Below, in pieces: positions 119-50,594 of a stretch of DNA of 50,594 nt. Within the stretch, counting starts at the first letter, position 1. The number at the start of each line of letters is the position of its first letter. The translations under genes and the position numbers were made by a program. The notes beneath the pieces are model-generated. The model did no database searches. It was given only the letters and a program-made list of their open reading frames with translations, and was not told the DNA's origin. Source of the stretch: Candidatus Aenigmatarchaeota archaeon (GTDB lineage Archaea; Aenigmatarchaeota; Aenigmatarchaeia; GW2011-AR5); the NCBI GenBank assembly GCA_043799385.1, contig JAZDNV010000016.1, positions 1-50,594 of the forward strand. Direction: 5' to 3'.

Positions 119-1255
119 ATGAAAAGAGCCCTGCTATTCCTGCTTTTGCTTTCTGCCGTTGCAAGTGCAGCTCGAGTTGAGGCGTTCCTGAGCCCAGACA
201 ACAGCTTTCAGGCATTGCATGACTTTATCCAAGGTGGAAATTTGTATATAGCGTCTTATACGTTCACTAATCCGTACATAATGGACGGGCTTATAGGGGC
301 GAAAAACATCACTATATTAATAGATGCCAGCCCTGCCGGCGGATTGATTGGCAAAGAATTGCTTTGCGAGATGCAGAAGAACAACATTTCTGTCCACCTT
401 TTTTATGGCAAGGGCTACATGCACGCAAAATATATAATAAAAGGCAGCGCAGTTCTCGTGTCTTCTGAAAATATCGGCGACGATGGCTATCCGAAATATA
501 ATTATGGCAACCGCGGTTACGGAGTTATCGTGTATGATGAGAATATCGCAAAAGAATTCATGAAAATATTCAATGAAGACATGAAAAACTCGAAGCAATT
601 CGTCTGCAACCTGACTGATTACAGGATAAATTATGACGATAAGAAAGGAAAGTCAACATTCCAGCAAAAATCATTCGATAACCAGATGATCAGAACAATA
701 TTCGCACCAAACGCGACTGACGATATACTTTCTCTCATCAACTCAGCTGACAAATCCCTGCATATCGAACAGTTCTACATCTATCGCTACTGGAAGAATT
801 CTTCTAACCCTTTTTTAGAGGCAGCGATAGAAAGGGCAAGAAATGGAGTTGACGTGAAAATACTTTTAGATAGCATCTGGTACAACGTTGACAAGAAAGA
901 CGAGAACAGCAATTTTTATACCGCAGAATACGTGAATGGGATAGCAAGAAAAGAAAATTTGAGTCTGGAAGCAAGACTCGTGGACTTGGACAAACTCGGC
1001 TTTCAGGAGGTTCATAACAAGGGAATGATTGTAGATGAATCGATTGTTCTTGTTTCATCGATTAACTGGAACGAGAACTCGCCAAAAAATAACAGGGAAG
1101 TCGGATTGGTGATAAGCGGCGAATCCGCGAAATACTTTCTCGCCGCGTTTGAATATGACTGGAGTGGTGGCAAAGAAGACAATAATTTTGTCTTGCTTAT
1201 AAGTTTAGTTATAGTCGCAATAATAATCATTTTTATTCTTGTGAGTAGAAGATGA
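119..1255 (+). CDS. Phospholipase D superfamily protein, secreted and C-terminally membrane anchored
   Basis: N-terminal signal peptide; two HKD-type motifs (HAKYIIKG degenerate, HNKGMIVD...SSINWN canonical); C-terminal hydrophobic helix followed by RR. Confidence 0.85.
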   Translation: MKRALLFLLLLSAVASAARVEAFLSPDNSFQALHDFIQGGNLYIASYTFTNPYIMDGLIGAKNITILIDASPAGGLIGKELLCEMQKNNISVHLFYGKGYMHAKYIIKGSAVLVSSENIGDDGYPKYNYGNRGYGVIVYDENIAKEFMKIFNEDMKNSKQFVCNLTDYRINYDDKKGKSTFQQKSFDNQMIRTIFAPNATDDILSLINSADKSLHIEQFYIYRYWKNSSNPFLEAAIERARNGVDVKILLDSIWYNVDKKDENSNFYTAEYVNGIARKENLSLEARLVDLDKLGFQEVHNKGMIVDESIVLVSSINWNENSPKNNREVGLVISGESAKYFLAAFEYDWSGGKEDNNFVLLISLVIVAIIIIFILVSRR

Positions 1256-1259
1256 TATT

Positions 1260-2612
1260 ATGTATGAGAATTATTCTGATGAGATACAGAATTTTCTGAA
1301 AAGCAACCACATAGAAATTGGCCAGCGGATTTCCATAAAGAAGGATGAGGAATGCTACGAAGGGTTGCTCATGCCAAAGAGCAGCGGCAATCCGCATTGC
1401 CTGGTGATAAAACTGGACAACGGCTACAACATCGGCATAGATTTCAAGAACGTTGAGATAAAGAAGATGAAAGAGATAAGAGAAATAACCAAACCGCATG
1501 CGAAATTGAGAATAAGGCATGATTCAGGCAAGCCGACAATAGTGATATTGCACACAGGCGGGACGGTCGCTTCTCGTGTTGATTACAGGACAGGCGCAGT
1601 ATCGCCAGCATTCTCGTCCGAGGACATAATTGCGATGTTTCCCGAGCTTCAGGATATCGCGAACATACGCTCCAGATTGGTCAGAAACATGTGGTCGCAG
1701 GATATGCGATTTTCACATTATAACATACTTGCAAAGGAAGTGGCGAAAGAGCTAGAAGAAGGGTGCGATGGAATAATAATAACGCACGGAACAGACATGA
1801 TGGCCGTTACGTCTGCGGCGCTGGCATTCATTCTAGAAGACGTGCCGGTACCCGTTATTCTCGTGGGTTCGCAACGCTCTTCTGACCGCGGCTCTAGTGA
1901 CGCGGCAATGAACCTGATATGCGCTGCTAGATTCATTGCAAATAGCGATTTCAGTGAAGTTGCCCTTTGTATGCACGAGAACATGAGCGATGAGAACTGC
2001 CTTATACTGCCAGCGACGAAAACAAGAAAAATGCACACGTCACGTCGCGATGCATTCCGTCCGATAAATGCACAGCCTTTCGCGAGAGTAAGCTATTCAG
2101 GAGTCATTGAATTCATGAACGACAGTTACAAAAAGAAGGATATAAAAAGAAGGCTAGCGCTGAAGCTGATAAAGGAAAACATAAAGGTCGGAGTGATTAA
2201 AAACCGCAACAACATGTTTGCCGATGAATTCCTTTTCTACAGTAATTACGACGGATTGATTATCGAGGCCAGTGGCCTTGGCTGCTCGCCGATAAGCAGG
2301 ATAGATGATTTAACAGAAGAGAGCGGTAAAACCCTTTCTGCAATCAAAACACTTTTAGAGAACAATGTTGTCGTTTTTCTTGCTCCGCAGACAATATACG
2401 GACGGATAAACATGAATGTTTACGAGGACCAGAGGATTATGAAATCTCTTGGCGTTTTGGGCGACCAATCAGATATGCTGTCAGAAACAGCATACGTAAA
2501 GCTTGCATGGGCGTTGAGCAACTATCCGAAAGAGAAGACTGCGGATATAATGATGCAGAACCTCAGGGGCGAGCTTTCCGAAAGAAACGATTCGAATACT
2601 TTTTTATACTGA
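1260..2612 (+). CDS. gatD: Glu-tRNA(Gln) amidotransferase subunit D
   Basis: KLDNGYNIG N-domain; asparaginase motifs TGGTVASRVDYRTGAV, HGTD, SQRSSDRGSSD, KMHTSRRDAF. Confidence 0.97.
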   Translation: MYENYSDEIQNFLKSNHIEIGQRISIKKDEECYEGLLMPKSSGNPHCLVIKLDNGYNIGIDFKNVEIKKMKEIREITKPHAKLRIRHDSGKPTIVILHTGGTVASRVDYRTGAVSPAFSSEDIIAMFPELQDIANIRSRLVRNMWSQDMRFSHYNILAKEVAKELEEGCDGIIITHGTDMMAVTSAALAFILEDVPVPVILVGSQRSSDRGSSDAAMNLICAARFIANSDFSEVALCMHENMSDENCLILPATKTRKMHTSRRDAFRPINAQPFARVSYSGVIEFMNDSYKKKDIKRRLALKLIKENIKVGVIKNRNNMFADEFLFYSNYDGLIIEASGLGCSPISRIDDLTEESGKTLSAIKTLLENNVVVFLAPQTIYGRINMNVYEDQRIMKSLGVLGDQSDMLSETAYVKLAWALSNYPKEKTADIMMQNLRGELSERNDSNTFLY

Positions 2613-7206: not shown

Positions 7207-7980
7207 ATGTCAGTTGAAATTTATCCATCAGGAGCAAGCCTTGACGTAGATGAAGCCTTTGTCAAGGAGAAATTCGGGCAGATTTATCCGGATTCAGTTG
7301 GCATAATGGAAGAAGGCGTAGACAGATTCCATCTGGTTTGCTGGACCGATTCGGATTTCATACCAATAGCCAACATAGACAAAGAACAAGGTATGCAGGC
7401 TCTGAAAATAAGACTTGAAAAAGAGCTCTACGAGCATTATTGCAATCACGATGAAGTATCTTCTGCCTTAGGGGTTAGTCCATATCTGCTACCCAGGCAT
7501 GCAAAGATACTGGGCGTTGCTGTTCATGATATAAAGAAAAGTAAATTAAATGACACCCTTATCATGCATGGATATAGTGCAAAAAAGGCTGCTGAGGTTT
7601 TGAGTCAAGCATCAGGCACTGATTATACTGAAAAAAATCTAATGTTCGATATCGCCTGTCTGATTTTATGTCCAAGGATACCAATGTCCGTTGTATACTG
7701 TGATGGCGATGACGTGTGCATGAAAAGAAAGCCCATAGAAACCACAATGACAGCAAATGCACGATTAGCGGTTAAGAATAATGGTTATGAATTCAACTGG
7801 GAAATTAAAGGTCCTGGCGACGATATAATTGAAAGTGGCAGCAGCGTTAATTCGCTTTACCGTATAATCGGTTATGCGTCCAGCAGAATGTTCGGAACAG
7901 TTGAGGCGTATCTGACTGGTTCTACTAACGTGCCTGAGATAAAGGCGTTCTATAATAAATTCAGAAGGGAGCGCTCCTAG
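7207..7980 (+). CDS. Hypothetical protein
   Basis: 257-aa ORF with TTTAAA upstream; no family recognised; stop codon lies within the antisense 3' end of tRNA-Arg. Confidence 0.7.
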   Translation: MSVEIYPSGASLDVDEAFVKEKFGQIYPDSVGIMEEGVDRFHLVCWTDSDFIPIANIDKEQGMQALKIRLEKELYEHYCNHDEVSSALGVSPYLLPRHAKILGVAVHDIKKSKLNDTLIMHGYSAKKAAEVLSQASGTDYTEKNLMFDIACLILCPRIPMSVVYCDGDDVCMKRKPIETTMTANARLAVKNNGYEFNWEIKGPGDDIIESGSSVNSLYRIIGYASSRMFGTVEAYLTGSTNVPEIKAFYNKFRRERS

Positions 7981-8108
7981 CGCGATTTGAACGCGCGACC
8001 CCTTGCTTTCACACCTGACGGTATCATCATCACATAGCAAAGCTATGCTCTGTTCACCTCCGCGTCAGATAGGAGGCAAGTGCTCTATCCAAACTGAGCT
8101 ATAGGAGC
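7972..8108 (-). tRNA. tRNA-Arg(CCU) with a 62-nt intron (8008-8069, position 37/38)
   Basis: Acceptor GCTCCTA/TAGGAGC+G; D-loop GGA (A20, an Arg determinant); anticodon arm CTTGC-CT-CCT-A^A-GCAAG; T-loop TTCAAAT. No strict BHB, so 36/37 is also possible. Confidence 0.88.
8008..8069 (-). ncRNA. Candidate intron-encoded K-turn / box C/D-like RNA in tRNA-Arg(CCU)
   Basis: D-like CAGA (8052-8049), stem GCATAGC-TTT-GCTATGT, consensus C box ATGATGA (8030-8024), forming a standard kink-turn. Confidence 0.55.
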
Positions 8109-8150: not shown

Positions 8151-9950
8151 TTAGATGAAAACCTTTATTTCATTTTTTATCAATGCATTCAGAACAGATT
8201 TTCCGATGTCCGAGTCCTTCGCGACTCGTATGCTTCCGTTTTTGCCTATGGTTGCGGAAAATATGTATTCGTTGTCTGAGTAGAAATTCGCTACCCTGCC
8301 CTGTTTTTCCTTGAACGAGAATATAAGATAAGCGCCCGATTCCTCTTTCTCGAATTTTATCTCCTTGCCGAGCGTTGATACATTTGGCAAAACCTCGATG
8401 CCGATACCGAGCTTCTTCTCAAGCTCGCTTATCGTCTTTCCATCTTTTCCTATAAGCTTTCCTATTATATCGTTCTCGACACGAACGACTGCACGATCAT
8501 TGGCTATATCCACGACTGCATTCCTGTCAAATTTGCTTATCTCAGAGAATATTCGTTGCTTCGCCAGTTTTATTATCGGCGACTCCTTCGTCTTCGTTAC
8601 TGGTATTATCACGTTCTCCTCGCCATAGGTGTAGATTTCGTATTTCAATTCATTGGTTTCGAAATTCCTAACTTCTACGATTGGCCGTGCCAGATCTGCC
8701 TCAGTCATGCCTGTCGGCGTGCGTACGACCAACGATAATCCGTAGACTTCTCTGATAACACCATCTTTTATGTATATAATGAGGTCAATAATGTGCGGTA
8801 TCATGCCCAGCTCGATGCGACCGATGAATCGCTGCACAGCATCAATAGGGTCAGAGGCGTGAACAACACCAATCATACCTATCCCAGATAGCCGCATATC
8901 GGCAAATATCTCGAATTCCTCTGTCTTCCTTACTTCGTCAAATACGGAGTAGTCGGGCCTTACCAGCAGTAGCAAATCAGCAGTGTTTGCAAAGGAGCCC
9001 TTGAGCTTCGTATACTGTGTTATCTCTGGCGGAACCTGCAAATCGCGCGGAGATTCCAGCGTCTTCACTATCGCTTTCTTTTCCTTCTCGAAGAACTCGG
9101 CGAGCGTCGCGGCGAACGTTGATTTTCCTGAGCCAGGCGGCCCGGCGATTAGAATTCCTTCAGCCTTCTTTAGCAGGCGTTCTTTCAGCTTTTCTGACAA
9201 TTTATAATCCTCCAGCTTAAGCTTTGTTATCGGTCGCACGACTGTTATCTCAACGCCGTCAGAAAAAGGCGGCCTTGCTATCGCGATACGCATGTCGCCC
9301 AACTGTACGACAGTCGCGGAGTGACCGCCAATCTCTATGAACGAATCCTCCTCGTATCGCGTAGCATCCATTACCTCGGTTATTATCTCTTCCAGTTCGT
9401 CTGAGGTGAGTTTTTCATCCCTGATCTTTACAAGTTTGAATTCACCAGGCTTGCCGATTTTTGCCAACGGTATGCAGCCGTCTTTCAGGTGAAGGCTCAT
9501 CGTGTCCTTTGTCAATAATTTCTCAAGTTTCAGTTCCTTTTTCTTTTCATAAGGCTTGAAATATTTCGTTTTTATTCCTTCTGCCTCTGCAACCATCGAT
9601 TGAACGATATCAGAAGTATAGATAGTCGCGTCTTCCTTTTTTGCGATATCAAGAATTAATGCATCTATTCGTCCATATTTGGATAATTGTATCTCTTCAT
9701 ACGTTTGTCGTCGACCGGCTTTTATGAGCGTGATTTTCTTATCATCGTGGTATTTCCTTATCTTCTTCAGGCCCTCAAGACCTTTGAACCCTACCTCGCG
9801 GCCGCGTGACGCCTGAGCTCGCAACTCTTCAACAACGAATTCAGGTATTATTATGTCCGCGTCCTTTACCTCACCCTTCTCTATGAGGTCCATCAGAACT
9901 CCGGATATTATTACGCTCGTGTCAGGAACAATCTTTTCCCTGTCTTTCAT
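8151..9950 (-). CDS. PIN-domain ATPase with KH domain (PINA / COG1855)
   Basis: PIN motif VPDTSVII; Walker [42 protein letters not shown]. Confidence 0.93.
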
Positions 9951-12376: not shown

Positions 12377-12407
12377 GTGGGAGTGTGGTTGAAAAATTAT
12401 AAAAAAG

Positions 12408-12496
12408 GGCCGCGACCGGGATTTGAACCCGGGCTAAAGGATCCACAGTCCTATGCACTCCGAAGATTTGTGCTACCAAGCTACACAATCGCGGCC
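12408..12496 (-). tRNA. tRNA-His(GUG) with a 15-nt intron at 27/28 (12453-12467)
   Basis: Encoded G-1; acceptor GCCGCGA/TCGCGGC+C; BHB GCAC-AA^A-TC(TTCG)GA-GTGC-AT^A; splicing restores AAGGA-CT-GTG-GA-TCCTT. Confidence 0.93.
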
Positions 12497-12572
12497 ATAA
12501 TCCATTCACAGCCAAAGCTCATGATGGCCAATATCTAATTGTCCCATAATTTATAAATCTTATAAGAAGGCG

Positions 12573-18443: not shown

Positions 18444-19067
18444 TCACGGTTTATGCCTTGTGATTTGATAGTATGTGCAGTCGCCTTCGTTGTCGACAAG
18501 AGCCCAAAGCATGCGTGCGCGGATGTTATGCGCTAATCGAACCGCACGCGAGAGTTCTTGAAAAGAGCATGTGAAATCTTCAGGAACAGTGAATACAATC
18601 CACTTAGTGTGCTCTTTTGCAGATTTCGGGCCTTTCTTCAACTGGACGCCACGTTCATATACGCGGAAGTCGCAGCCGAACTTGAATCCGGTTCGGACAA
18701 GAAGACCGCGTTCCCTCAAATCCTCGTATACACGATAGCGATGTGGAAGCCTCTTATCCAATGAAACAGCATGATTATACAATTCCTCGAAGCTTACAGT
18801 TTTCTTGTCCTTAAGGACGCGGATTCTGCCGCGCTTCAGCAGCAATAGCGACTCGATTAATGCAAGTTCAAGGCGGTCGCCGATCTGCTTGCCGTAGTAC
18901 CCTGGTTCATATATCTGATCCCATTTCTCAAAAACAACGATCTTATCTTCTTCCAATGAAGAATCTATGACTTCTTTCGGTTTTTCCCATTCAACATATT
19001 CTGGCATATCTTCCTTTTCTTCTTCAATAATCTTCTCTTCTTGTATTTTCTTCTTCTTTTTTCCCAT
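18444..19067 (-). CDS. endA: tRNA-splicing endonuclease, single catalytic (alpha-type) unit
   Basis: G.YG...LELALIES; VYEDLRERG..VRTGFKFGCDFRVYERG; VRLAH..R; ALVD..GD.TYY. Start likely the ATG at 19067 (track starts at 19103). Confidence 0.95.
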   Translation of the reverse strand: MGKKKKKIQEEKIIEEEKEDMPEYVEWEKPKEVIDSSLEEDKIVVFEKWDQIYEPGYYGKQIGDRLELALIESLLLLKRGRIRVLKDKKTVSFEELYNHAVSLDKRLPHRYRVYEDLRERGLLVRTGFKFGCDFRVYERGVQLKKGPKSAKEHTKWIVFTVPEDFTCSFQELSRAVRLAHNIRARMLWALVDNEGDCTYYQITRHKP

Positions 19068-19145
19068 AGAACCACTTGTCGCAATAGATAATTTCCTTAT
19101 CAATATTTAAATTGATTCTATTATTGTTGATTCATGCATGAGAAT

Positions 19146-19706
19146 TCAGTAGTTGGTTTCTCCTGTCGCGCAATTAACTGTATATTCCCCAGAATCGCAT
19201 TCTATCGTATTGTTTATCAGGTCCCAGTTCTTTACCGTTCCCTTCGATGTATCGTAAATCGAGCAGCACATCACTTTTACAGAGTTCTTGATAACCGCAT
19301 TTTTTATTGTCGTCTCGTTTTCATAGCTTGCCTTCCAGCCCTTGCTCTCGTTTTCGCATTTAGCCAATAATTCATTGAGACTTGTCGAATAATTCTGCAG
19401 CTCGGCAGTCCTTTTTTCGCATGCGGCTACATAGAACTCGCTCCTGCTCATTTTATCTTCACATACGCGGAGGCTGTAGTTTATGTCCATGGCAGTCAGT
19501 TCGCAGTTGCCTAACGACGACCTCACTGCGATTAGATCGTTCTTTGATTTGTTCAGTTCTGCTTCAATCCCCTCGGTATATGTGGCAAAAGTGGTCGCCC
19601 TGTTTGTTATGAAATAGAATGAAGCTATCAGGAAAATACATATGATTAAAATGAGTACGTACTTGCCGTTAAACCCCAGCTTTGGTGTGCTGTAGCTATA
19701 GGTCAT
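19146..19706 (-). CDS. Single-TM protein with Cys-studded coiled coil
   Basis: N-terminal TM, heptad region, CC and C-terminal Cys cluster. Confidence 0.7.
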   Translation of the reverse strand: MTYSYSTPKLGFNGKYVLILIICIFLIASFYFITNRATTFATYTEGIEAELNKSKNDLIAVRSSLGNCELTAMDINYSLRVCEDKMSRSEFYVAACEKRTAELQNYSTSLNELLAKCENESKGWKASYENETTIKNAVIKNSVKVMCCSIYDTSKGTVKNWDLINNTIECDSGEYTVNCATGETNY

Positions 19707-20043: not shown

Positions 20044-20045
20044 AG

Positions 20046-20134
20046 CGCCCTCGGCAGGACTCGAACCTGCGACCACCTGATAACTGTATATCATATTTAA
20101 CAGTCAGATGCTCTACCTGCTGAGCTACAAGGGC
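20046..20134 (-). tRNA. tRNA-Asn(GUU) with a 16-nt canonical 37/38 intron (20082-20097)
   Basis: GCCCTTG/CGAGGGC+G; strict BHB CTGT-TA^A-ATA(TGA)TAT-ACAG-TT^A. Confidence 0.95.
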
Positions 20135-34011: not shown

Positions 34012-34089
34012 AACTTAATCACTTTCGGAAAATTTTTAAAAGACATGTTTAAAAATGTTTCTCACTCATTTAATGGATATGCAATCCGT

Positions 34090-34199
34090 GGGCCGGTAGC
34101 TCAGCTGGTTAGAACTCTTCAAAGAGTAACATGCAACTGTCTTATAAGGCATCTGAGCGTAAAAGCAGTAGGTCAGGAGTTCAAATCTCCTCCGGCCCA
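34090..34199 (+). tRNA. tRNA-Ile(UAU) with two introns: 23/24 (34114-34132) and 38/39 (34148-34164)
   Basis: GGGCCGG/CCGGCCC+A; BHB1 GTTA-GA^A...TAAC-AT^G; BHB2 TTAT-AA^G...GTAA-AA^G; mature 74 nt with ACTGT-CT-TAT-AA-GCAGT. Confidence 0.88.
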
Positions 34200-34317
34200 T
34201 TACAAAATATTATTTTTTAGTCATACAATTTTTTTCTCGGAGTGAAAAAAATAACCGATAAATATATATATGGGGTAAATTCATTATATAATCATAAATT
34301 AAATGGGTGATAAGAAA

Positions 34318-34839: not shown

Positions 34840-34906
34840 TATAAAAATGTAGCGAAACTATAAAAAATTTAATTTCAATGAGATTAATGATTAACAGGTG
34901 AGAAAA

Positions 34907-35557
34907 ATGAGGCTTGTCATAAAAATCGGCGGTTCGATGTCAATAGACGAAAACGGTCCGAGGATGGAGTACTTCAAAAAACTACTGCCTGTGCTGGAAA
35001 AGATAGATGAAAGCAATCAGCTGATTCTTTCGATTGGCGGTGGGAAATTCATAAGAAAATACTATGATGCGATAAAGGAATTCGGCTTGAGCGACGAGGA
35101 GATGGAATGGATTGCGATCGACATACTTCGCGTCAACGTGCGGTTCCTGTCATTTTTGGTGAAGAAAAAAGTGATACTCTCTTTGGATGAATTGAAAGAA
35201 AATAGCAGCGGCGTGATAGGCGGTATAGCGCCGAAGCGCAGTACCGATGCGAACGCGGCCTACGCCGCGAAGACAATAAAAGCGGATTTATTCATCAAAT
35301 TGACAAACGTTGATGGCGTCTACGACAAGGACCCGAGGAAATTCATCGATGCAAAAAAAATTGATGAGATATCCTTCAATGAATTGAAGAATTACACCGA
35401 GGACGGTAAACCAGGAAAATATGGCGTTCTGGACAATATGGCTGCTGACACAATAGTGAAGAATAGGATAAAGACGGTTATAATGAACGGCAGCGAGCCA
35501 AAAGATATTCTAAAAGTCCTACGCGGAGAAAAAATCGGTACGCTGATAAGCGATTAA
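34907..35557 (+). CDS. pyrH: Uridylate kinase
   Basis: VIKIGGS, GGGKFIRKY, STDANAA, TNVDGVYDKDP, GEKIGT; AGGTGA RBS favours ATG 34907. Confidence 0.93.
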   Translation: MRLVIKIGGSMSIDENGPRMEYFKKLLPVLEKIDESNQLILSIGGGKFIRKYYDAIKEFGLSDEEMEWIAIDILRVNVRFLSFLVKKKVILSLDELKENSSGVIGGIAPKRSTDANAAYAAKTIKADLFIKLTNVDGVYDKDPRKFIDAKKIDEISFNELKNYTEDGKPGKYGVLDNMAADTIVKNRIKTVIMNGSEPKDILKVLRGEKIGTLISD

Positions 35558-35590
35558 TTCTTTAAACGTTTCTGCCTTAATTCTTATTAC

Positions 35591-35663
35591 GGGCCCGTGG
35601 TCTAGCGGTTATGACGTCGCGTTCACGTCGCGAAGGTCGCAGGTTCAAATCCTGCCGAGCCCA
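35591..35663 (+). tRNA. tRNA-Val(CAC), no intron
   Basis: TCGCG-TT-CAC-GT-CGCGA; GCAGG-TTCAAAT-CCTGC; acceptor GGGCCCG/CGAGCCC+A with one C-A mismatch. Confidence 0.93.
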
Positions 35664-35691
35664 TTTAAAGATTAATGAGGAATTGATGAGC

Positions 35692-36681
35692 ATGAAGGCA
35701 ACGGCAACCGCAAATGCGAATATTGCTCTAGTTAAATATTGGGGTAAAAGGAGCTCGGATACAATTCTCCCGAAAAACGGAAGCATCTCGATGACATGTG
35801 ATGGGATGACAACTACGACAACAGTAGAATTCTCTGATGAATATAATGAGCATACGGTCGTAATAAATGACGAGGAATTCAAGAAGGATGAAAAGGATAT
35901 ACATGGCCATATCGACCGTATCTGCAAGCTGGCAGGAATAAAGCAGCATGCAAAAGTAATTTCAGAGAGCAATTTTCCGGTTGCAGCCGGACTCGCGAGC
36001 AGCGCCAGCGGCTTTTCAGCGTTAACAGTGGCAGCATGCGCGGCAGCTGGATTAAAACGGTCGCCAAAGGAATTGTCGATACTTACCCGTCAAGGCTCTG
36101 GTTCCGCTTGCCGAAGCATTTTCGGTGGTTTCGTTGAATGGAATCGCGGTGAAAAAGATGACGGTAGTGATAGTTATGCAGAATCGATCGTTGACAAGAA
36201 TTATTGGCCGGATTTCAGAATGGTTACGACTATCGTTGAGGTAAAGAAAAAGCCAGTTAGCAGCCGTGCAGGAATGGCCCAGACAGTAGCGACATCTCCT
36301 TATTATGATGGTTGGCTTAAAACGGTTAATGAAGATATGAAAAGCGTCAGAGACGGTATAAATGAAAGAAATTTTGTTAAAGTAGCAGAAACAGCTGAAT
36401 TCAATTGTTTGAAGATGCATGCGACGATGATAACGACAAAGCCGCCGATAATCTACTGGATACCAGCGACGATGGAGATTATTCATGCAGTAAGGCAGAT
36501 ACGCGAAGAAGGGATAGCCGCATATTTCACGATGGATGCAGGACCAAACGTCAAGGTCATGTGCCTTAAAGAAAATGAAAATGAGATAAGCAGAAGGATT
36601 CAGGAACTGGATGGCGTGATAAAGACGATAGTATGCAAGCCTGGCGAAGGAGCGAAAATAATCGACAAGCATTTATTTTAG
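35692..36681 (+). CDS. mvaD: Diphosphomevalonate decarboxylase
   Basis: NIALVKYWGK, SNFPVAAGLASSASG, GSGSACRS, SSRAGM, TMDAGPNV; start at 35692 or 35686 (track start lies in tRNA-Val). Confidence 0.95.
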   Translation: MKATATANANIALVKYWGKRSSDTILPKNGSISMTCDGMTTTTTVEFSDEYNEHTVVINDEEFKKDEKDIHGHIDRICKLAGIKQHAKVISESNFPVAAGLASSASGFSALTVAACAAAGLKRSPKELSILTRQGSGSACRSIFGGFVEWNRGEKDDGSDSYAESIVDKNYWPDFRMVTTIVEVKKKPVSSRAGMAQTVATSPYYDGWLKTVNEDMKSVRDGINERNFVKVAETAEFNCLKMHATMITTKPPIIYWIPATMEIIHAVRQIREEGIAAYFTMDAGPNVKVMCLKENENEISRRIQELDGVIKTIVCKPGEGAKIIDKHLF

Positions 36682-36692
36682 AGAGTGATGAA

Positions 36693-37634
36693 ATGACAGG
36701 AAGAGGCATTGGATATGGTAAAACTATTCTGTTTGGAGAACATTTTGTCGTTTACGGTTTCCCAGGAATCGCATCAGCGATAAGCGATTACACGATTGCA
36801 GAAGTTGAAGAAGGAGAAAAAGGTTTAACACTTATAGATAACAGGCATGCTGTTGAAGGCTACAAAGAAACAAAACAAGGCGAGATATCTAGGGGGCTTG
36901 AGCTTATTCTTAATTTTATGAAGATCGATGTTGACAAGACTCCATTAAAAATAACGCTTTCAGGCAATCTTGAATGCGCATCGGGTATAGGTGCGAGTGC
37001 AGCATTAGCAAGCAGCATCGCCAGGGCATTGAACGAGCATTTTGATTTCGGAATGAACGATGACCAGATTAATGAAGTTGCATACGAGGGCGAGAAGGGA
37101 AGTGCAGGCACACCAAGTGGTATAGATAATACATGTTCTACATATGGCGGGATGATTGTTTTCGAAAAAAATCTGGCTGGAGGCCCGAATAAAATTGAAA
37201 GAATTACTGTTGCGAAACCGTTAGACATAGTTATGGCAAGTACGGGAATAACCCAGGAGACAAAGGAAGTTGTGGCTGATGTTAAAAAAGAAAAAGACAG
37301 CAATCCTGAAAAATTTGACAAGATTTTTGTAGAATATAAAAGAGTTTTCGATGAGGCATTAATTGCCATAAAGAAAGGAGATGTCAAGAAAATAGGAGAG
37401 CTTATGGATAAGAATCAGGAACTACTTAGACAGATAACCGTCAGCTGCCATGAGATAGAAGAAATAGTATCAATCGCCAAAAATAACGGCGCTCTTGGCG
37501 CAAAATTAACTGGGACAGGAAGAGGGGGCCTTGTGATATCTCTTGCTTCAAACAGAGAAGAAGCAGAAAAAATATCAAAGACGATTGAAAATAAAGGCTT
37601 CAAAACTAGTATGACACAACTAGGAAAAAAGTAA
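36693..37634 (+). CDS. mvk: Mevalonate kinase
   Basis: GKTILFGEHFVVYG, SGIGASAA, GTPSGIDN, GAKLTGTGRGG. Confidence 0.95.
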   Translation: MTGRGIGYGKTILFGEHFVVYGFPGIASAISDYTIAEVEEGEKGLTLIDNRHAVEGYKETKQGEISRGLELILNFMKIDVDKTPLKITLSGNLECASGIGASAALASSIARALNEHFDFGMNDDQINEVAYEGEKGSAGTPSGIDNTCSTYGGMIVFEKNLAGGPNKIERITVAKPLDIVMASTGITQETKEVVADVKKEKDSNPEKFDKIFVEYKRVFDEALIAIKKGDVKKIGELMDKNQELLRQITVSCHEIEEIVSIAKNNGALGAKLTGTGRGGLVISLASNREEAEKISKTIENKGFKTSMTQLGKK

Positions 37635-37640
37635 GTTATA

Positions 37641-38756
37641 GTGAATTTTATGGTCCATACTTCTGCACCTGGAAAACAGATGTTAGCTGGCGAGTGGTCA
37701 GTCCTCGAGTTAGGTAATCCGTGCATAGTTGCCGCAGTAAACAAAAGGGTTCATGTGGAGATAGAAGAAAGCGAAGAGATTAGCATAACTGTCGATGATT
37801 TCAACATCAAGGACGTAAAAGCTGATTTTAATGGCAAGCAGCTAGCTTGGAAAAATGCAGATGACAAGGAAAAGGAAAAACTTATTTTTATCAAAGGAGC
37901 AATAGAAACAGCGTTGCAGTATCTTGGCGACTACAAGTCTTTCAAGCTGAGGAGCTGGGGGGAAGAGTCGCAAATTGTAGTAGATGGTGTTGCAAAAAAA
38001 GTCGGTTTCGGATCATCTGCAGCGTGTGTTGTTGCAACGGTGTCTGGGTTATTGAAGTTCAATGGTTATGATATTGATTGTAGAGAGTCCAATGATATAA
38101 TATATAAGTTATCAACAATCGCCCATTACTTTGCCCAGGGTAAAGTAGGAAGCGCATTCGACGTGGCCGCATCCACTTATGGCGGTGCAACCGTTTACAA
38201 GAGATTCGATCCAATCTGGTTGACAAAACGAATAGAATCAGAAACCGTCAAGAAGATAGCAGAAGAAGACTGGCCATACTTTTTTGTCGAGGAACTTAAG
38301 GTTTCAGATGATTTTATTCTTTTAGTTGGTTGGACAAAAGAATCAGCAAGCACGTCTGCTATGGTAAAACAGATGGATAATTTCAAGAATAACGACTTCA
38401 ATGAATACAAGAGGATATACGACGGTATATCAAAACTCGTTTGTGAGCTTATAGACGCATGGAAGGTAAATGATCAAGAAGAAATTCTGGCTCTGATAAA
38501 AAAGAATGAAGAATATCTCAGGGAGTTAGGGCAAAAAAGCGGGGTAAACATAGAAACGAAGGAACTCAAGCAGCTAGTTGATATAGCCAATGAGAATGGA
38601 GCAGCAGGAAAGCTCTCCGGAGCAGGAGGCGGAGATTGCGGAATTGCTGTATGCTTCAGTAGCGATGTTGTAGAAAAAATAATAGAGGAATGGCAGAACG
38701 CAGGGCTCTACCCACTGGATGTAAGCATAGATTATGACGGGGTAAGAGAGGAATGA
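37641..38756 (+). CDS. Phosphomevalonate kinase (GHMP, Gram-positive MvaK2/ERG8 type)
   Basis: SAPGKQMLAGEWSVLE, KVGFGSSAA, AHYFAQGKVGSAFDVAASTYGG, KLSGAGGGDCG. Confidence 0.92.
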   Translation: MNFMVHTSAPGKQMLAGEWSVLELGNPCIVAAVNKRVHVEIEESEEISITVDDFNIKDVKADFNGKQLAWKNADDKEKEKLIFIKGAIETALQYLGDYKSFKLRSWGEESQIVVDGVAKKVGFGSSAACVVATVSGLLKFNGYDIDCRESNDIIYKLSTIAHYFAQGKVGSAFDVAASTYGGATVYKRFDPIWLTKRIESETVKKIAEEDWPYFFVEELKVSDDFILLVGWTKESASTSAMVKQMDNFKNNDFNEYKRIYDGISKLVCELIDAWKVNDQEEILALIKKNEEYLRELGQKSGVNIETKELKQLVDIANENGAAGKLSGAGGGDCGIAVCFSSDVVEKIIEEWQNAGLYPLDVSIDYDGVREE

Positions 38757-39277
38757 ACGAAATGCTAATTCTCGTCGACAAGAATGACAAGGAAATCGGT
38801 TTCGAGGAGAAGGAGAAATGCCATCTGAATCCGGCAAAACTGCACCGCGCTTTTTCAATATTCATTTTCAACCGAAAAAATGAAATGCTCGTGCACAAGC
38901 GAAGCACAAAGAAAAAAACATGGCCCGGATTCTGGACCAACGCCTGCTGCTCGCACCCACGAAAAGGCGAAACGACTGATTTTGCTGCGAAAAGAAGATT
39001 AAAAGAAGAGCTAGGATTTGCAACAGAGCTTAAGCAGATATCCAAATTCCAGTATGACGCCAAGTATGATGAAAAATACGGAGAAAATGAGTTCGATTAC
39101 GTTTTTGCCGGTTTTTATGATGGAAAGGTAAATGCTGACAAGAATGAAATTGATGAGTGGAAGTATGTCAATCTCGATGCATTACTGAAGGATATGAGGA
39201 ATGCGCCAGAAAAGTATACTCCGTGGTTCAAGATAGCGCTACCTAGAGTCGTAGATTATATTAAGAAGAACAATTAG
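38753..39277 (+). CDS. idi: Isopentenyl-diphosphate isomerase type 1 (Nudix fold)
   Basis: LHRAFSIFIF, WTNACCSHP, RRLKEELG, ENEFDYV, YTPWF. Confidence 0.95.
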   Translation: MNEMLILVDKNDKEIGFEEKEKCHLNPAKLHRAFSIFIFNRKNEMLVHKRSTKKKTWPGFWTNACCSHPRKGETTDFAAKRRLKEELGFATELKQISKFQYDAKYDEKYGENEFDYVFAGFYDGKVNADKNEIDEWKYVNLDALLKDMRNAPEKYTPWFKIALPRVVDYIKKNN

Positions 39278-39508: not shown

Positions 39509-40462
39509 ATGATTGCAACAGTGGCAAAAACGCCCATCGGAGTATTCGCTTTCTCGGAGAAGGGTGAATTGTTATATTACAAGCTGTTTAGCAGGGACGC
39601 GGCAAAAGCGGTTGACGAGTTCCTGTCACCTGCTGAAAACCATATCACTGAGATGAAAGGATATGAGATAAAGGAAGACAGGTCCGGAAGGCTGATAAGA
39701 AAGAAAATGCGCGAGTATGCGATTGATTTAGGCTTCGTAAAGAATGATAGCGAGTTAAACGTTTTTCTTTCTGGCTTTGCCCTGATATTGTCGAAAAAGA
39801 GGATGAAAATCATTATTGGTCGCGATCGTTTGGTCGTGCAGGCCAGCAATGCTCTCGACGACTTGAATAAGATACATAACCTTTTGCTAGAGAGATTGCG
39901 AGAATGGTATTCTCTGCATTACCCGGAGTCAAGACCTGATATTGAAAAAATAATCAAATACGGCAGGCGCGAGAATTTCCCAGATTTCCAGGAATCCACG
40001 GGCATCGAAATAAATGGCAATGACGAGCGCATACTGAAAGATTATGCATTGATGATAAAGGATGTTTCTGAAAAAAAGAACGAAATCGAACGTTATGTCA
40101 AGGAATCAATGAAGGAGATAACGCCGAACGTATCTTCGCTGCTCGAGCCGCTGCTGGCTGCGCGTTTGCTGGCCCTGGCAGGCTCGCTGGAACGATTGGC
40201 CAAGATGCCGTCTTCGACTATACAATTACTGGGCGCGGAAAAAGCATTGTTCCGTCATCTGAAGAAGCAGGGACGCTCACCGAAGTACGGTTTGATATTT
40301 ATGGATTCTCACATACAGAACGCTAGAAATGAGAACAAAGGCAAGATAGCGCGATTGCTTGCTGCAAAGCTTATGCAGGCGGCAAAGATAGACTTTTATT
40401 CCGGACGCTATGAGGAGAAATTAAAAAAAGAATTGGAAGAAGAGATAAAGGCGGTAAAATGA
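39509..40462 (+). CDS. nop5: Box C/D RNP scaffold Nop5 (Nop56/58)
   Basis: ERLREWYSLHYPE, LAKMPSSTIQLLGAEKALF, PKYGLIF, GKIARLLAAK. Confidence 0.95.
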   Translation: MIATVAKTPIGVFAFSEKGELLYYKLFSRDAAKAVDEFLSPAENHITEMKGYEIKEDRSGRLIRKKMREYAIDLGFVKNDSELNVFLSGFALILSKKRMKIIIGRDRLVVQASNALDDLNKIHNLLLERLREWYSLHYPESRPDIEKIIKYGRRENFPDFQESTGIEINGNDERILKDYALMIKDVSEKKNEIERYVKESMKEITPNVSSLLEPLLAARLLALAGSLERLAKMPSSTIQLLGAEKALFRHLKKQGRSPKYGLIFMDSHIQNARNENKGKIARLLAAKLMQAAKIDFYSGRYEEKLKKELEEEIKAVK

Positions 40463-41106
40463 AAGAGATATTTTCAGGCGTTTTTGTTGATGGAAAAAAA
40501 CTATATACAATGAACTTGGTTCATGGCAGCAGCGTATATGGCGAAAAACTGGTTAAGCATGATGGCAAAGAATTGCGCGAGTGGGTTCCGACGAGAAGCA
40601 AACTCGCGGCGGCATTGCTAAATGGCCTGAAAGAATTGAACACAGGAAAGCGGATTATGTATCTTGGTGCATCGACTGGCACGACTATATCGCACGTATC
40701 TGATATTGTTGGTGAAGACGGAGTCGTTTATGCCATCGAGTTTGCCGAGCGCGTGTTTAGGAACTTGGTGGAATTATGCAAAAAGAGAAAAAACATAGTC
40801 CCTATTCTTGCAGACGCTAGGAAGCCAGAAGAGTACTATTGGGCCGAGGAATGCGATATGGTTTACTGCGATATCGCTGATCCCCAGGAAACGGAGATAG
40901 CGATGCGCAACGCAAATGAATTCTTGAAGAAAGGAGGATATATTATGATTGCAATAAAATCGCAGAGCATAGACGTCACAAAAAAGCCGTCGCAAGTCTA
41001 CAAAGAGGAGAGGGAAAAATTAGTGAAAGCTGGCTTTAGCGTTCTGCAATCAGTGGATTTGGAGCCGTACGAGGAAAAGCATTGCATGATAGTGGCGAAG
41101 AAATAA
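40459..41106 (+). CDS. flpA: Fibrillarin-like 2'-O-methyltransferase
   Basis: VYGE, REW.P.RSKLAAA, YLGASTGTTISHVSD, NIVPILADA, LEPYEEKH. Confidence 0.97.
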   Translation: MKEIFSGVFVDGKKLYTMNLVHGSSVYGEKLVKHDGKELREWVPTRSKLAAALLNGLKELNTGKRIMYLGASTGTTISHVSDIVGEDGVVYAIEFAERVFRNLVELCKKRKNIVPILADARKPEEYYWAEECDMVYCDIADPQETEIAMRNANEFLKKGGYIMIAIKSQSIDVTKKPSQVYKEEREKLVKAGFSVLQSVDLEPYEEKHCMIVAKK

Positions 41107-49888: not shown

Positions 49889-50410
49889 ATGAACAGGTTT
49901 GAGATTGCTTACAAGCTTGTAGAAGAATTCGGCAAGATATGCCCTGCTGATTCGAAGTGCGGTTCATTTTGCGAATTATCGGAGTTCGCCATTTTCCTGC
50001 CAGAAGAATTCGAATATCTGGTAAAAAGGAACAAAATAATCGGCGGTGAAAGAAAGAGATTTTCCAAGCTTTTCAGAGTTAATGGCAAAGAGGTATACAT
50101 ACAGCCTGCAGACGGGCAAAGCTGTCCGTTCTACAAACACGGAAGATGCATCAACCGAAATGCGAGACCTCTAGATTGCAGAACCTATCCAGTGATGCCG
50201 TGCTTAAAAAACGGAAAACTATCCGTAAAACTAGCAGAACGATGTTTTTTGTTTAAACAGAATAAAATTACAAAGAATATGGTAAAAAAAGCCCTTATGG
50301 TATGGAAGTTGGTAAACCCACCGAACTGGTGGCTGGAGATATACGAAAAATTATGCGAGGGGCCGGATTCGAACCGACGAACCCAATCCTCAAAAACGCG
50401 AAGAAACTGA
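49889..50410 (+). CDS. YkgJ-like Cys-cluster (Fe-S or Zn) protein
   Basis: C....CGSFC...CPFY..GRC....RPLDCRTYP...C; 3' end overlaps tRNA-Leu on the opposite strand. Confidence 0.85.
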   Translation: MNRFEIAYKLVEEFGKICPADSKCGSFCELSEFAIFLPEEFEYLVKRNKIIGGERKRFSKLFRVNGKEVYIQPADGQSCPFYKHGRCINRNARPLDCRTYPVMPCLKNGKLSVKLAERCFLFKQNKITKNMVKKALMVWKLVNPPNWWLEIYEKLCEGPDSNRRTQSSKTRRN

Positions 50411-50557
50411 CGACAGTGATCGTCTTTTTGTCTCTGCGTTCTTTCTAAGGGACAAGATCTTGAGTATCGCTATCATTTGACACAGCTACACGGCCAATCG
50501 TGTATGTGCTTCAAGACTCAAAATGCCTTGCGCCTTTGGCCGCTTGGCTACCCTCGC
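50354..50557 (-). tRNA. tRNA-Leu(CAA) with two long introns: 30/31 (50466-50526, 61 nt) and variable arm (50386-50444, 59 nt)
   Basis: GCGAGGG/CCCTCGC+A; removing both leaves 84 nt with CAAGA-CT-CAA-GA-TCTTG and variable arm TCCCTTAGTGGGTTC; intron 2 has BHB CCTT-AG^A...GAGG-AT^T. Confidence 0.88.
50466..50526 (-). ncRNA. Candidate intron-encoded, permuted box C/D guide RNA for Cm34 of tRNA-Leu(CAA)
   Basis: Guide ATTTTGAGTC (50524-50515), D-like TTGA (50514-50511), hairpin, C-like ATGATAG (50476-50470); the D+5 base faces C34. Confidence 0.6.
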
Positions 50558-50594
50558 ATGAGTGTTGATTATTAATAACAAGGCAAAATTTAAA

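Follow-up and report, generated by a model that had tools for sequence, protein, structure and literature searches.

Can the intron of a tRNA other than tRNA-Trp serve as a guide for the modification of its own host? The question is raised by a stretch of 50,594 nt from contig JAZDNV010000016.1 of a Candidatus Aenigmatarchaeota archaeon (hereafter the window), in which the gene for tRNA-Arg(CCU) is interrupted by an intron of 62 nt. A first-pass annotation, made from the letters alone, had read this intron as a permuted box C/D RNA with one kink-turn (K-turn) and two candidate guides. Our analysis partly confirmed the observation and partly supported its interpretation: the intron contains one conserved K-turn and one antisense element. 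As judged from sequence, both the K-turn and the first guide-like element are real and conserved. In our best reading the Arg intron is a relative of the tRNA-Trp intron guide that has a single K-turn and a single guide, and that would direct methylation of its tRNA.

The K-turn and the antisense element

The tRNA-Arg(CCU) gene is absent from the results of a default ARAGORN run and of a whole-window Rfam scan at gathering thresholds; a local Rfam scan recovers it (tRNA, 52.2 bits, E 2e-10, model positions 1-71), with a 64-nt insert after CCU-A. The gene comprises 75 nt of exon plus the intron, has a G as discriminator and does not encode CCA. Its mature product has the anticodon stem CUUGC/GCAAG and the loop C-U-C-C-U-A-A with anticodon CCU. 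The intron string given in the first-pass annotation is the exact reverse complement of window positions 8008-8069. Homologous introns in two other loci (denoted L001 and L103) occupy an equal position, and the boundary at 37/38 has an ambiguity of one base (A/A). Read as RNA, the first half of the intron consists of U, CUGACG, C GGAGGUGA A, CAGA and GCAUAGC UUU GCUAUGU, and the second half of GAU-GAUGA, UAC, CGUCAG and GUGUGAA. The features are as follows.

7972..8108, minus strand: tRNA-Arg(CCU) gene
8070..8108, minus strand: 5' exon, tRNA positions 1-37 (C27 at 8080, C31 at 8076, C32 at 8075, C34 at 8073, A37 at 8070)
8072..8079, minus strand: exon target U28-C35, complementary to GGAGGUGA; the predicted fifth position is C31 (8076)
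8008..8069, minus strand: intron of 62 nt, at 37/38
8063..8068, minus strand: 5' strand of helix P1, CUGACG, helix h' of the splice motif (folds and covariation)
8053..8062, minus strand: antisense element C-GGAGGUGA-A, 10 nt; GGAGGUGA (8054-8061) is invariant in all three introns
8049..8052, minus strand: box D'-like CAGA, non-bulged strand of the K-turn, invariant in all three introns
8032..8048, minus strand: P2 hairpin GCAUAGC-UUU-GCUAUGU, canonical stem of the K-turn (folds and covariation)
8024..8031, minus strand: 3-nt bulge GAU, overlapping box C'-like AUGAUGA; strict descriptor match at 8024-8052
8021..8023, minus strand: joiner UAC between the C' box and P1 (3 nt; 5 nt in L001 and 3 nt in L103)
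8015..8020, minus strand: 3' strand of P1, CGUCAG, the core of the annotation's second guide (covariation)
8008..8014, minus strand: tail GUGUGAA, which contains the annotation's GTGA (read from the sequence)
7972..8007, minus strand: 3' exon, tRNA positions 38-73 (sequence and Rfam tRNA match)

The sequence CAGA directly abuts the 7-bp stem GCAUAGC/GCUAUGU with its UUU loop, which is followed by the GAU bulge and GAUGA, an arrangement predicted to have the consensus geometry of a K-turn. The box C'-like AUGAUGA supplies the tandem G-A and then U, G and A; the corresponding sequences are UAU-GAUGA and AAU-GACGA in the homologues, which have equal geometry with a UAU bulge in L001 and an AAU bulge in L103. 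A K-turn formed by a box C and a box D is seen in all three introns, as AUGAUGA, AUGAUGA and AUGACGA, each together with CAGA. The 7-bp stem, the 3-nt bulge and the G-A core of the first-pass annotation were borne out, and the K-turn is conserved with covarying helices in both homologous introns; loss of the K-turn in homologues, which the annotation had listed among the observations that would refute it, was not seen in these two introns.

We estimated how readily such a motif arises by chance with a strict descriptor (C[ACT]GA, a stem of at least 5 bp, an N-R-U bulge and GA[UC]GA). It had one match in the window, at the intron; 300 Markov simulations gave a mean of 0.21 per 50.6 kb, with at least one match in 59 of them. 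Taken alone, the match is suggestive of a real K-turn, not decisive. Over the window plus 251,204 b of loci, the descriptor matched only the introns of the window, L001 and L103. A loose descriptor was not enriched (16 window matches versus a mean of 12.1 in 30 Markov simulations), and a regular expression for standalone C/D sRNAs found no match across the window. Two other arrangements were considered and rejected: the alternative C' register GUGAUGA would set A-G, not G-A, beside the stem, and neither P1 nor the anticodon stem, taken as the canonical stem of a second K-turn, is abutted by G-A.

The homologous introns were obtained from one genome scan with a degenerate 17-nt exon pattern, which returned at least 119 loci, many of them bacterial tRNA-Arg genes or chance matches; at least two homologous introns were found among the matches listed. 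The intron of L001, from an Aenigmatarchaeota metagenome-assembled genome, is 107 nt long (1518-1624, plus strand), and that of L103, from an uncultured archaeon, 73 nt (228-300, minus strand). All three introns share one order of elements: P1, GGAGGUGA preceded by C or U and followed by A or G, CAGA, the hairpin and an N-A-U bulge, then GA[U/C]GA, 3-5 nt, the 3' strand of P1 and a variable tail. Invariant in the three are GGAGGUGA, CAGA, the N-A-U bulge and GA-[U/C]-GA. A covariance model (R1) built on an alignment of the window and L103 introns only (A3) detected the L001 intron, which was excluded from training, with 37.8 bits (E 1.2e-6), and it found no further match in the window or in the 119 listed loci.

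Base pairs were counted in an alignment fitted with the model (A5); the MAFFT alignments A1 and A2, in which the 3' strand of P1 and the C' register were misplaced, were not used. All 33 cells held standard pairs, and 7 of the 11 pairs had changed on both sides. None of 500 shuffles scored as high, and slid controls were 19-45% paired. In P1, six of six pairs are kept in the three sequences, four having changed on both sides; in P2, the first five pairs are kept, three having changed on both sides, and the inner part varies from 3 to 30 nt. Turnover of the helices and a hairpin interior of varying length, alongside an invariant K-turn core and GGAGGUGA, point to selection acting on the K-turn and the 8-mer.

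As the first-pass annotation had noted, GGAGGUGA can pair with U28-C35 of its own exon. The duplex has 8 bp, two of them G-U, and a calculated energy of -12.4 kcal/mol. Counted from CAGA it spans N+2 to N+9 with N+1 unpaired, and N+5 falls on C31. Canonical guides, such as those in D' guide duplexes, likewise pair from N+2 and leave N+1 unpaired. The element lies directly 5' of the D'-like box, as a D guide should, and its predicted fifth-nucleotide target rests on complementarity with the exon. No other 10-mer of the intron pairs as well with the mature tRNA as this 10-nt guide. Among the other tRNAs of the window, it pairs best with the T arm of that at 34089 (-13.5 kcal/mol, one internal mismatch included), and the only copy of TCACCTCC in the window is the intron's own antisense. 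The conformer in which the guide pairs with the exon lies 2.3 kcal/mol above the minimum free energy (MFE) fold in the full pre-tRNA, and 2.5, 3.7 and 6.0 kcal/mol above it in three arm constructs.

A TTG 12 nt after GGAGGUGA opens a frame of 91 amino acids (7765-8040, minus strand) that begins inside the intron and runs through the 3' exon. We considered GGAGGUGA as its Shine-Dalgarno (SD) sequence and rejected this: the frame has no Pfam match and is antisense to the open reading frame (ORF) at 7207-7980, and the sequences of L001 and L103, read by eye, have no counterpart. The frame is probably spurious.

An ORF encoding a PIN domain fused to a secretion-type ATPase (8151-9950, minus strand) adjoins tRNA-Arg(CCU) in the window and in six other loci, with identities to the window protein of 70% in L015, 67% in L001, 59% over 46 aa in L103, 49% in L094 and in L093, and 42% in L008. 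This shared neighbourhood suggests that the source organism is related to L001 and is an archaeon of DPANN type. The contig of L008 is binned as Campylobacterales and is archaeal in appearance. The tRNA-Arg(CCU) genes of L001 (1625-1760, plus strand) and L103 (minus strand) also have long T-loop inserts, and that of L103 has an apparent further insert in the D arm; because of these inserts Rfam detects no tRNA in either locus. In a Thorarchaeota tRNA-Arg(CCU) gene, a 19-nt intron (L107, 318-336, plus strand) contains AAUGAUGA and has no hairpin or D-type box.

The possible splice scaffold and the supposed second guide

The same comparison disposed of the second guide. The segment proposed for it, TACCGTCAGGT, is the 3' strand of P1; its complement CUGACG forms the intron's own stem with CGUCAG, as the first-pass annotation had itself remarked and as the folds agree. 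The strand changes together with its 5' partner in the homologues and is not conserved as a sequence: the 3' strands are CGUCAG in the window, UGUCAAA in L001 and UGCCUG in L103, each complementary to its own 5' strand. The longer form of the segment, UACCGUCAGGU, consists of the 3-nt joiner, the 3' strand of P1 and the first two nucleotides of the tail. The GTGA that was taken as a second D box is not conserved either, the tails being GUGUGAA in the window, an extra hairpin plus AA in L001 and UUGAU in L103; both the CUGA at the 5' end and the GUGA at the 3' end belong to the window intron only. Neither a linear nor a circular reading of the intron reveals a second conserved K-turn or C box, and the permuted two-guide C/D RNA of the first-pass annotation was not upheld.

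Instead, the tail can face C32-C35, with C32:G, U33/U, C34:G and C35:G and with intron U57 bulged. In this relaxed bulge-helix-bulge (BHB) fold, U36-A37-U and A-A-A38 form the two 3-nt bulges, so that P1 and the tail can form a scaffold for splicing with the K-turn module on top. The 13-nt intron of L015 (..GGUGAA) has an equal pattern of C32:G, U33/U, C34:G and C35:G. By nearest-neighbour calculation the BHB-like conformer has -15.0 kcal/mol versus -28.2 kcal/mol for the MFE fold, which it is not. The central splice helix has a U/U mismatch and a bulged U in the window and two of four pairs in L103, and a hairpin stands in its place in L001. A CCUCC-GGAGG pseudoknot was rejected as the central splice helix; a single nucleotide (C8) would be left to bridge the 6-bp P1. 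For C32-C35, guide pairing and the splice scaffold are in competition.

A splicing endonuclease of 219 aa is encoded in the window (18444..19103, minus strand; Pfam tRNA_int_endo 2.7e-26, N-terminal domain 4.9e-16), whose best solved relative is 1a79_A, a chain of the M. jannaschii homotetramer. The adjoining ORF of 186 aa (19146-19706, minus strand) has no family match, and no second endonuclease subunit was identified there. Several tRNA genes of the window have non-canonical insertions, which makes a tolerant splicing enzyme likely. Three more interrupted genes lie at 34089-34200 (plus strand), 12407-12512 (minus strand) and 20045-20134 (minus strand): in one, 32 nt are inserted in the D arm and 19 nt at the anticodon loop; in another, the Rfam match covers model positions 6 to 65 only; and the third is a tRNA-Asn(GUU) gene with a 16-nt intron.

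A fourth such gene, tRNA-Leu(CAA) (50353-50558, minus strand), was detected neither by Rfam nor by ARAGORN with default settings. Parsed by hand, it is interrupted twice: an intron of 61 nt (50464-50524) falls at 32/33, and ~64 nt (50385-50448) are inserted in the variable arm. The first-pass annotation had likened the Arg intron to this Leu intron. The likeness holds for length (62 versus 61 nt) and breaks down for layout: in the Leu intron an additional A separates UUGA from the stem, the bulge has 5 nt and the sequence GAUAG is present, and neither this intron nor the variable-arm insert fits either K-turn descriptor.

Possible roles of the module

The explanation that we favour, with a confidence that falls a little short of even, is that an L7Ae/Nop5/fibrillarin particle assembles on the intron and acts on the tRNA's own anticodon arm. 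The intron would then be modular, a splice-site scaffold (P1 and the tail GUGUGAA) carrying a grafted conserved module made up of C-GGAGGUGA-A, CAGA, the closing hairpin, the 3-nt bulge and AUGAUGA. Such a module would amount to one C'/D'-type K-turn with a guide 5' of the D'-like box, topologically half of a C/D RNA closed by a hairpin. L7Ae would bind the K-turn, and Nop5-fibrillarin would be recruited to the intron. The guide would open the anticodon stem and pair with its 5' strand and the loop, acting either in cis on the unspliced precursor or in trans as part of the excised, probably circularised intron; guide and splicing conformers would compete for C32-C35, as they do in pre-tRNA-Trp. 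Methylation would fall on the ribose of C31, whose pair with position 39 closes the loop, or, if a particle with one K-turn is imprecise, perhaps on that of a neighbour such as C32. The specific claim that a natural half C/D ribonucleoprotein from the tRNA-Arg(CCU) intron methylates C31 (or C32) in relatives of Aenigmatarchaeota is a doubtful one, which we put forward as a possibility.

Two of the proteins of such a particle are encoded in the window.

39509..40462, plus strand: Nop5 gene (Pfam Nop 1.9e-51)
40459..41106, plus strand: gene for fibrillarin, the 2'-O-methyltransferase (Pfam Fibrillarin 8.8e-86)

The two genes overlap by 4 nt in an operon-like arrangement. The Nop5 protein (317 aa) aligns to Sulfolobus solfataricus Nop5 (3id5_A), coiled-coil helices included; relative to it, ~36 residues are missing between the coiled-coil helices and ~30 from the N-terminal domain. 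As the coiled-coil helices are present, the protein lends no support to a naturally monomeric particle. Upstream of these genes lies a cluster of mevalonate-pathway type (34898-39277, plus strand), with genes for an amino-acid-kinase-family protein, a diphosphomevalonate-decarboxylase-like protein, two GHMP kinases and a NUDIX protein. Several aminoacyl-tRNA synthetase genes occur elsewhere in the window.

A number of observations weigh against methylation guided by the intron. The D'-like box is CAGA rather than CUGA, with A instead of U at position 2. The intron matches no Rfam C/D family (best sR12, 12.8 bits versus a gathering threshold of 38, E 3.7), and neither do the homologues (snR69 with 16.9 bits versus 50 for one, none for the other). 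No second box pair is conserved among the three introns, which leaves them without a bipartite architecture, in which a second motif lies ~12 nt from the first on both strands, and no L7Ae gene was found among the window ORFs of at least 90 aa. The guide pairs with its target through only six Watson-Crick pairs besides the two G-U, and 34 of 1000 shuffles pair as well at the guide position. Its N+5 nucleotide, C31, lies inside the stem, in the pair that closes the loop; we know of no 2'-O-methyl group at position 31 of any tRNA, and a word search of the literature for a 2'-O-methylated nucleotide (Nm) there turned up nothing relevant among the papers listed (15 of 652). The conservation is based on three sequences, counted in an alignment that was itself fitted to the structure, and the exon target was fixed by the search pattern. 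The module is present in three of the seven syntenic loci and is therefore dispensable: L015, the closest syntenic relative, has its 13-nt intron without the module, and L093, L094 and L008 have no intron at 37/38. Finally, the Arg intron holds one K-turn and one guide, whereas Hardin and Batey describe the bipartite architecture as absolutely conserved in natural complexes (PMC1635284; here and below, statements with such a number draw on excerpts of the articles). According to the same authors, particles with a single motif methylate in vitro non-specifically across positions 3-7 (PMC1635284), which weighs against precise methylation of C31 and leaves C32 possible.

The most serious alternative, though one that we consider unlikely, is that the K-turn binds L7Ae without any methylation. 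Bound L7Ae could aid folding by presenting the relaxed splice motif, set the timing of splicing or stabilise a circular intron, with the GGAGG-CCUCC pairing included in these roles. The canonical central splice helix is weak in all three introns, and the energy gap between the BHB-like conformer and the MFE fold makes help in folding plausible. A single K-turn suffices for L7Ae, and the module is dispensable in L015. On the other hand, the boxes exceed a minimal K-turn, with a complete RUGA[U/C]GA and, like C/D boxes, a C paired to the box G; the place of the antisense element is exactly that of a D' guide, with pairing from N+2 to N+9; and the short intron of L015 manages at the same site without help.

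Still less probable is that the module is a decaying remnant of a C/D-type sRNA that was inserted into the loop of a short intron, has no present function and is being lost. Its patchy occurrence in the syntenic loci fits such a history, as does the fact that half of a C/D RNA is left. In Haloferax volcanii the tRNA-Trp intron is likewise not essential, its deletion having no effect on growth under standard conditions (PMC11408192). Against decay stands the invariance of the K-turn core and the 8-mer in the face of compensatory helix turnover and a hairpin interior of 3 to 30 nt, which is a signature of selection on just these invariant parts.

A further alternative takes its origin from the 8-mer itself. 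The first-pass annotation had pointed out its resemblance to a SD sequence, and GGAGGUGA is the exact Watson-Crick complement of what we take to be the anti-SD sequence of the organism, UCACCUCC. The excised intron could act in trans on the 3' tail of 16S rRNA, as a guide or a decoy; we regard this as improbable. Pairing with UCACCUCC, presumably the 16S tail, would involve no G-U wobble. SD-like cores of GGAGGTGA (at least 5 nt) precede 7 of the 48 window ORFs versus 3.7% of random 22-mers, and the 16S tail of the organism therefore probably carries the complement. All three introns have U at guide position 4 and G at position 3, even though C or A there would make a better match to the tRNA, but three sequences are too few for an interpretation of the G-U positions. 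The window contains no rRNA (Rfam scan) and no tRNA-Arg(CCG), the other target in trans that the first-pass annotation had suggested, and to our knowledge no nucleotide of the anti-SD sequence is methylated. Action on 16S rRNA would also give no reason for the placement of the module in the one tRNA with CCUCC in its anticodon loop. The tRNA and 16S-tail targets are inseparable here because CCUCC is common to both and the exon was fixed by the search pattern; we favour the tRNA because the module sits in that one tRNA and because the Trp precedent targets itself. CCUCC stands in the anticodon loop because the anticodon is CCU, which fits self-targeting. In a bolder variant of the explanation that we prefer, the excised intron, stabilised by L7Ae, may also pair with the 16S 3' tail, the invariant 8-mer being equal to the SD consensus of the organism. 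Separately, GTGA is frequent at about -8 upstream of window ORFs.

Very improbable, lastly, is a complete circularly permuted C/D RNA in which UACCGUCAGGU before GUGA would serve as a second guide for 16S rRNA near E. coli position 750 or for another tRNA: the spacing in the window (AUGAUGA, 11 nt, GUGA) does resemble a unit of box C, guide and box D', but the segment covaries as the 3' strand of P1, it differs in sequence and lacks GUGA in both homologues, no second C-type box could partner GUGA in a linear or a circular reading, and the tail is explained by the splice motif.

Comparison with known systems

With other K-turns that bind L7Ae, in H/ACA sRNAs, RNase P RNA and rRNA, the Arg intron shares the canonical stem, the 3-nt bulge and the tandem G-A. 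Those K-turns lack the extended RUGAUGA and CUGA-like boxes, and no guide abuts their non-bulged strand. Unlike H/ACA sRNAs, the intron has no ACA box and no two-sided pocket for pseudouridylation; the 3' side of its internal loop has 3-5 nt, and none of the three introns has an ACA after P1. With the short BHB intron of L015 it has in common the site and the pattern of the 3' end (..GGUGAA and ..GGUGUGAA) facing C32-C35, and it differs from that 13-nt intron by an insert of ~50 nt that bears P1, the guide and the K-turn.

The order of guide, D', closing element and C' is that of the internal C'/D' motif of archaeal C/D sRNAs, with a true two-stem K-turn in place of the K-loop, as in engineered RNAs. 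The module also resembles the artificial hemi C/D particles, which assemble and methylate in vitro (PMC1635284). It differs from them in being natural; the hemi particles lose fifth-position specificity in vitro (PMC1635284). A single K-turn in the Arg intron bears on whether a natural C/D particle can work without the second motif that specificity requires in vitro.

The closest parallel is the tRNA-Trp intron. Its box C/D RNA guides the formation of Cm34 and Um39 (PMC4090602, PMC7994747, PMC3326292), and the excised intron is a stable circle (PMC4090602, PMC7994747, PMC11408192, PMC3326292). In the excerpts on which we draw, a review of 2014 calls this intron guide a unique example (PMC4090602), and reviews of 2021 and 2024 cite the Trp case only (PMC7994747, PMC11408192). 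Our literature searches outside subscription journals and supplements found no description of a guide-like tRNA-Arg intron, and a preprint on Asgard introns contained no mention of box C, K-turn, L7Ae or guide. In pre-tRNA-Trp, guide pairing competes with the fold of the splice site.

Like the tRNA-Trp intron sRNA (H. volcanii; sR50 of Pyrococcus), the Arg intron lies at 37/38, contains C/D-type K-turn elements and is antisense to its own anticodon arm; by analogy, the excised Arg intron is likely to be circular and stable. It is not of the sR50 type, which is defined by tRNA-Trp(CCA) and two guides directed at C34/U39. Its host is a different tRNA, tRNA-Arg(CCU), from a relative of Aenigmatarchaeota; where the Trp intron has C/D plus C'/D' and two guides, it has a single K-turn with a single guide; and the D'-like box is CAGA, with N+5 at C31 instead of sites at C34/U39. 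If the reading as a natural half C/D ribonucleoprotein is correct, tRNA-Arg(CCU) would be the second tRNA family with an intron-borne guide, and its guide the first natural one without bipartite architecture. A conserved guide-like module in another tRNA of a DPANN-type lineage would indicate that intron-borne guides arose or spread more than once. The explanation that we favour predicts Nm at C31 or C32 of tRNA-Arg(CCU) exclusively in genomes that bear the module, with L015, L093 and L094 as natural controls. The target predicted for the Arg intron and one of those of the Trp intron belong to one base pair of the anticodon arm, U39 being the pairing partner of C31.

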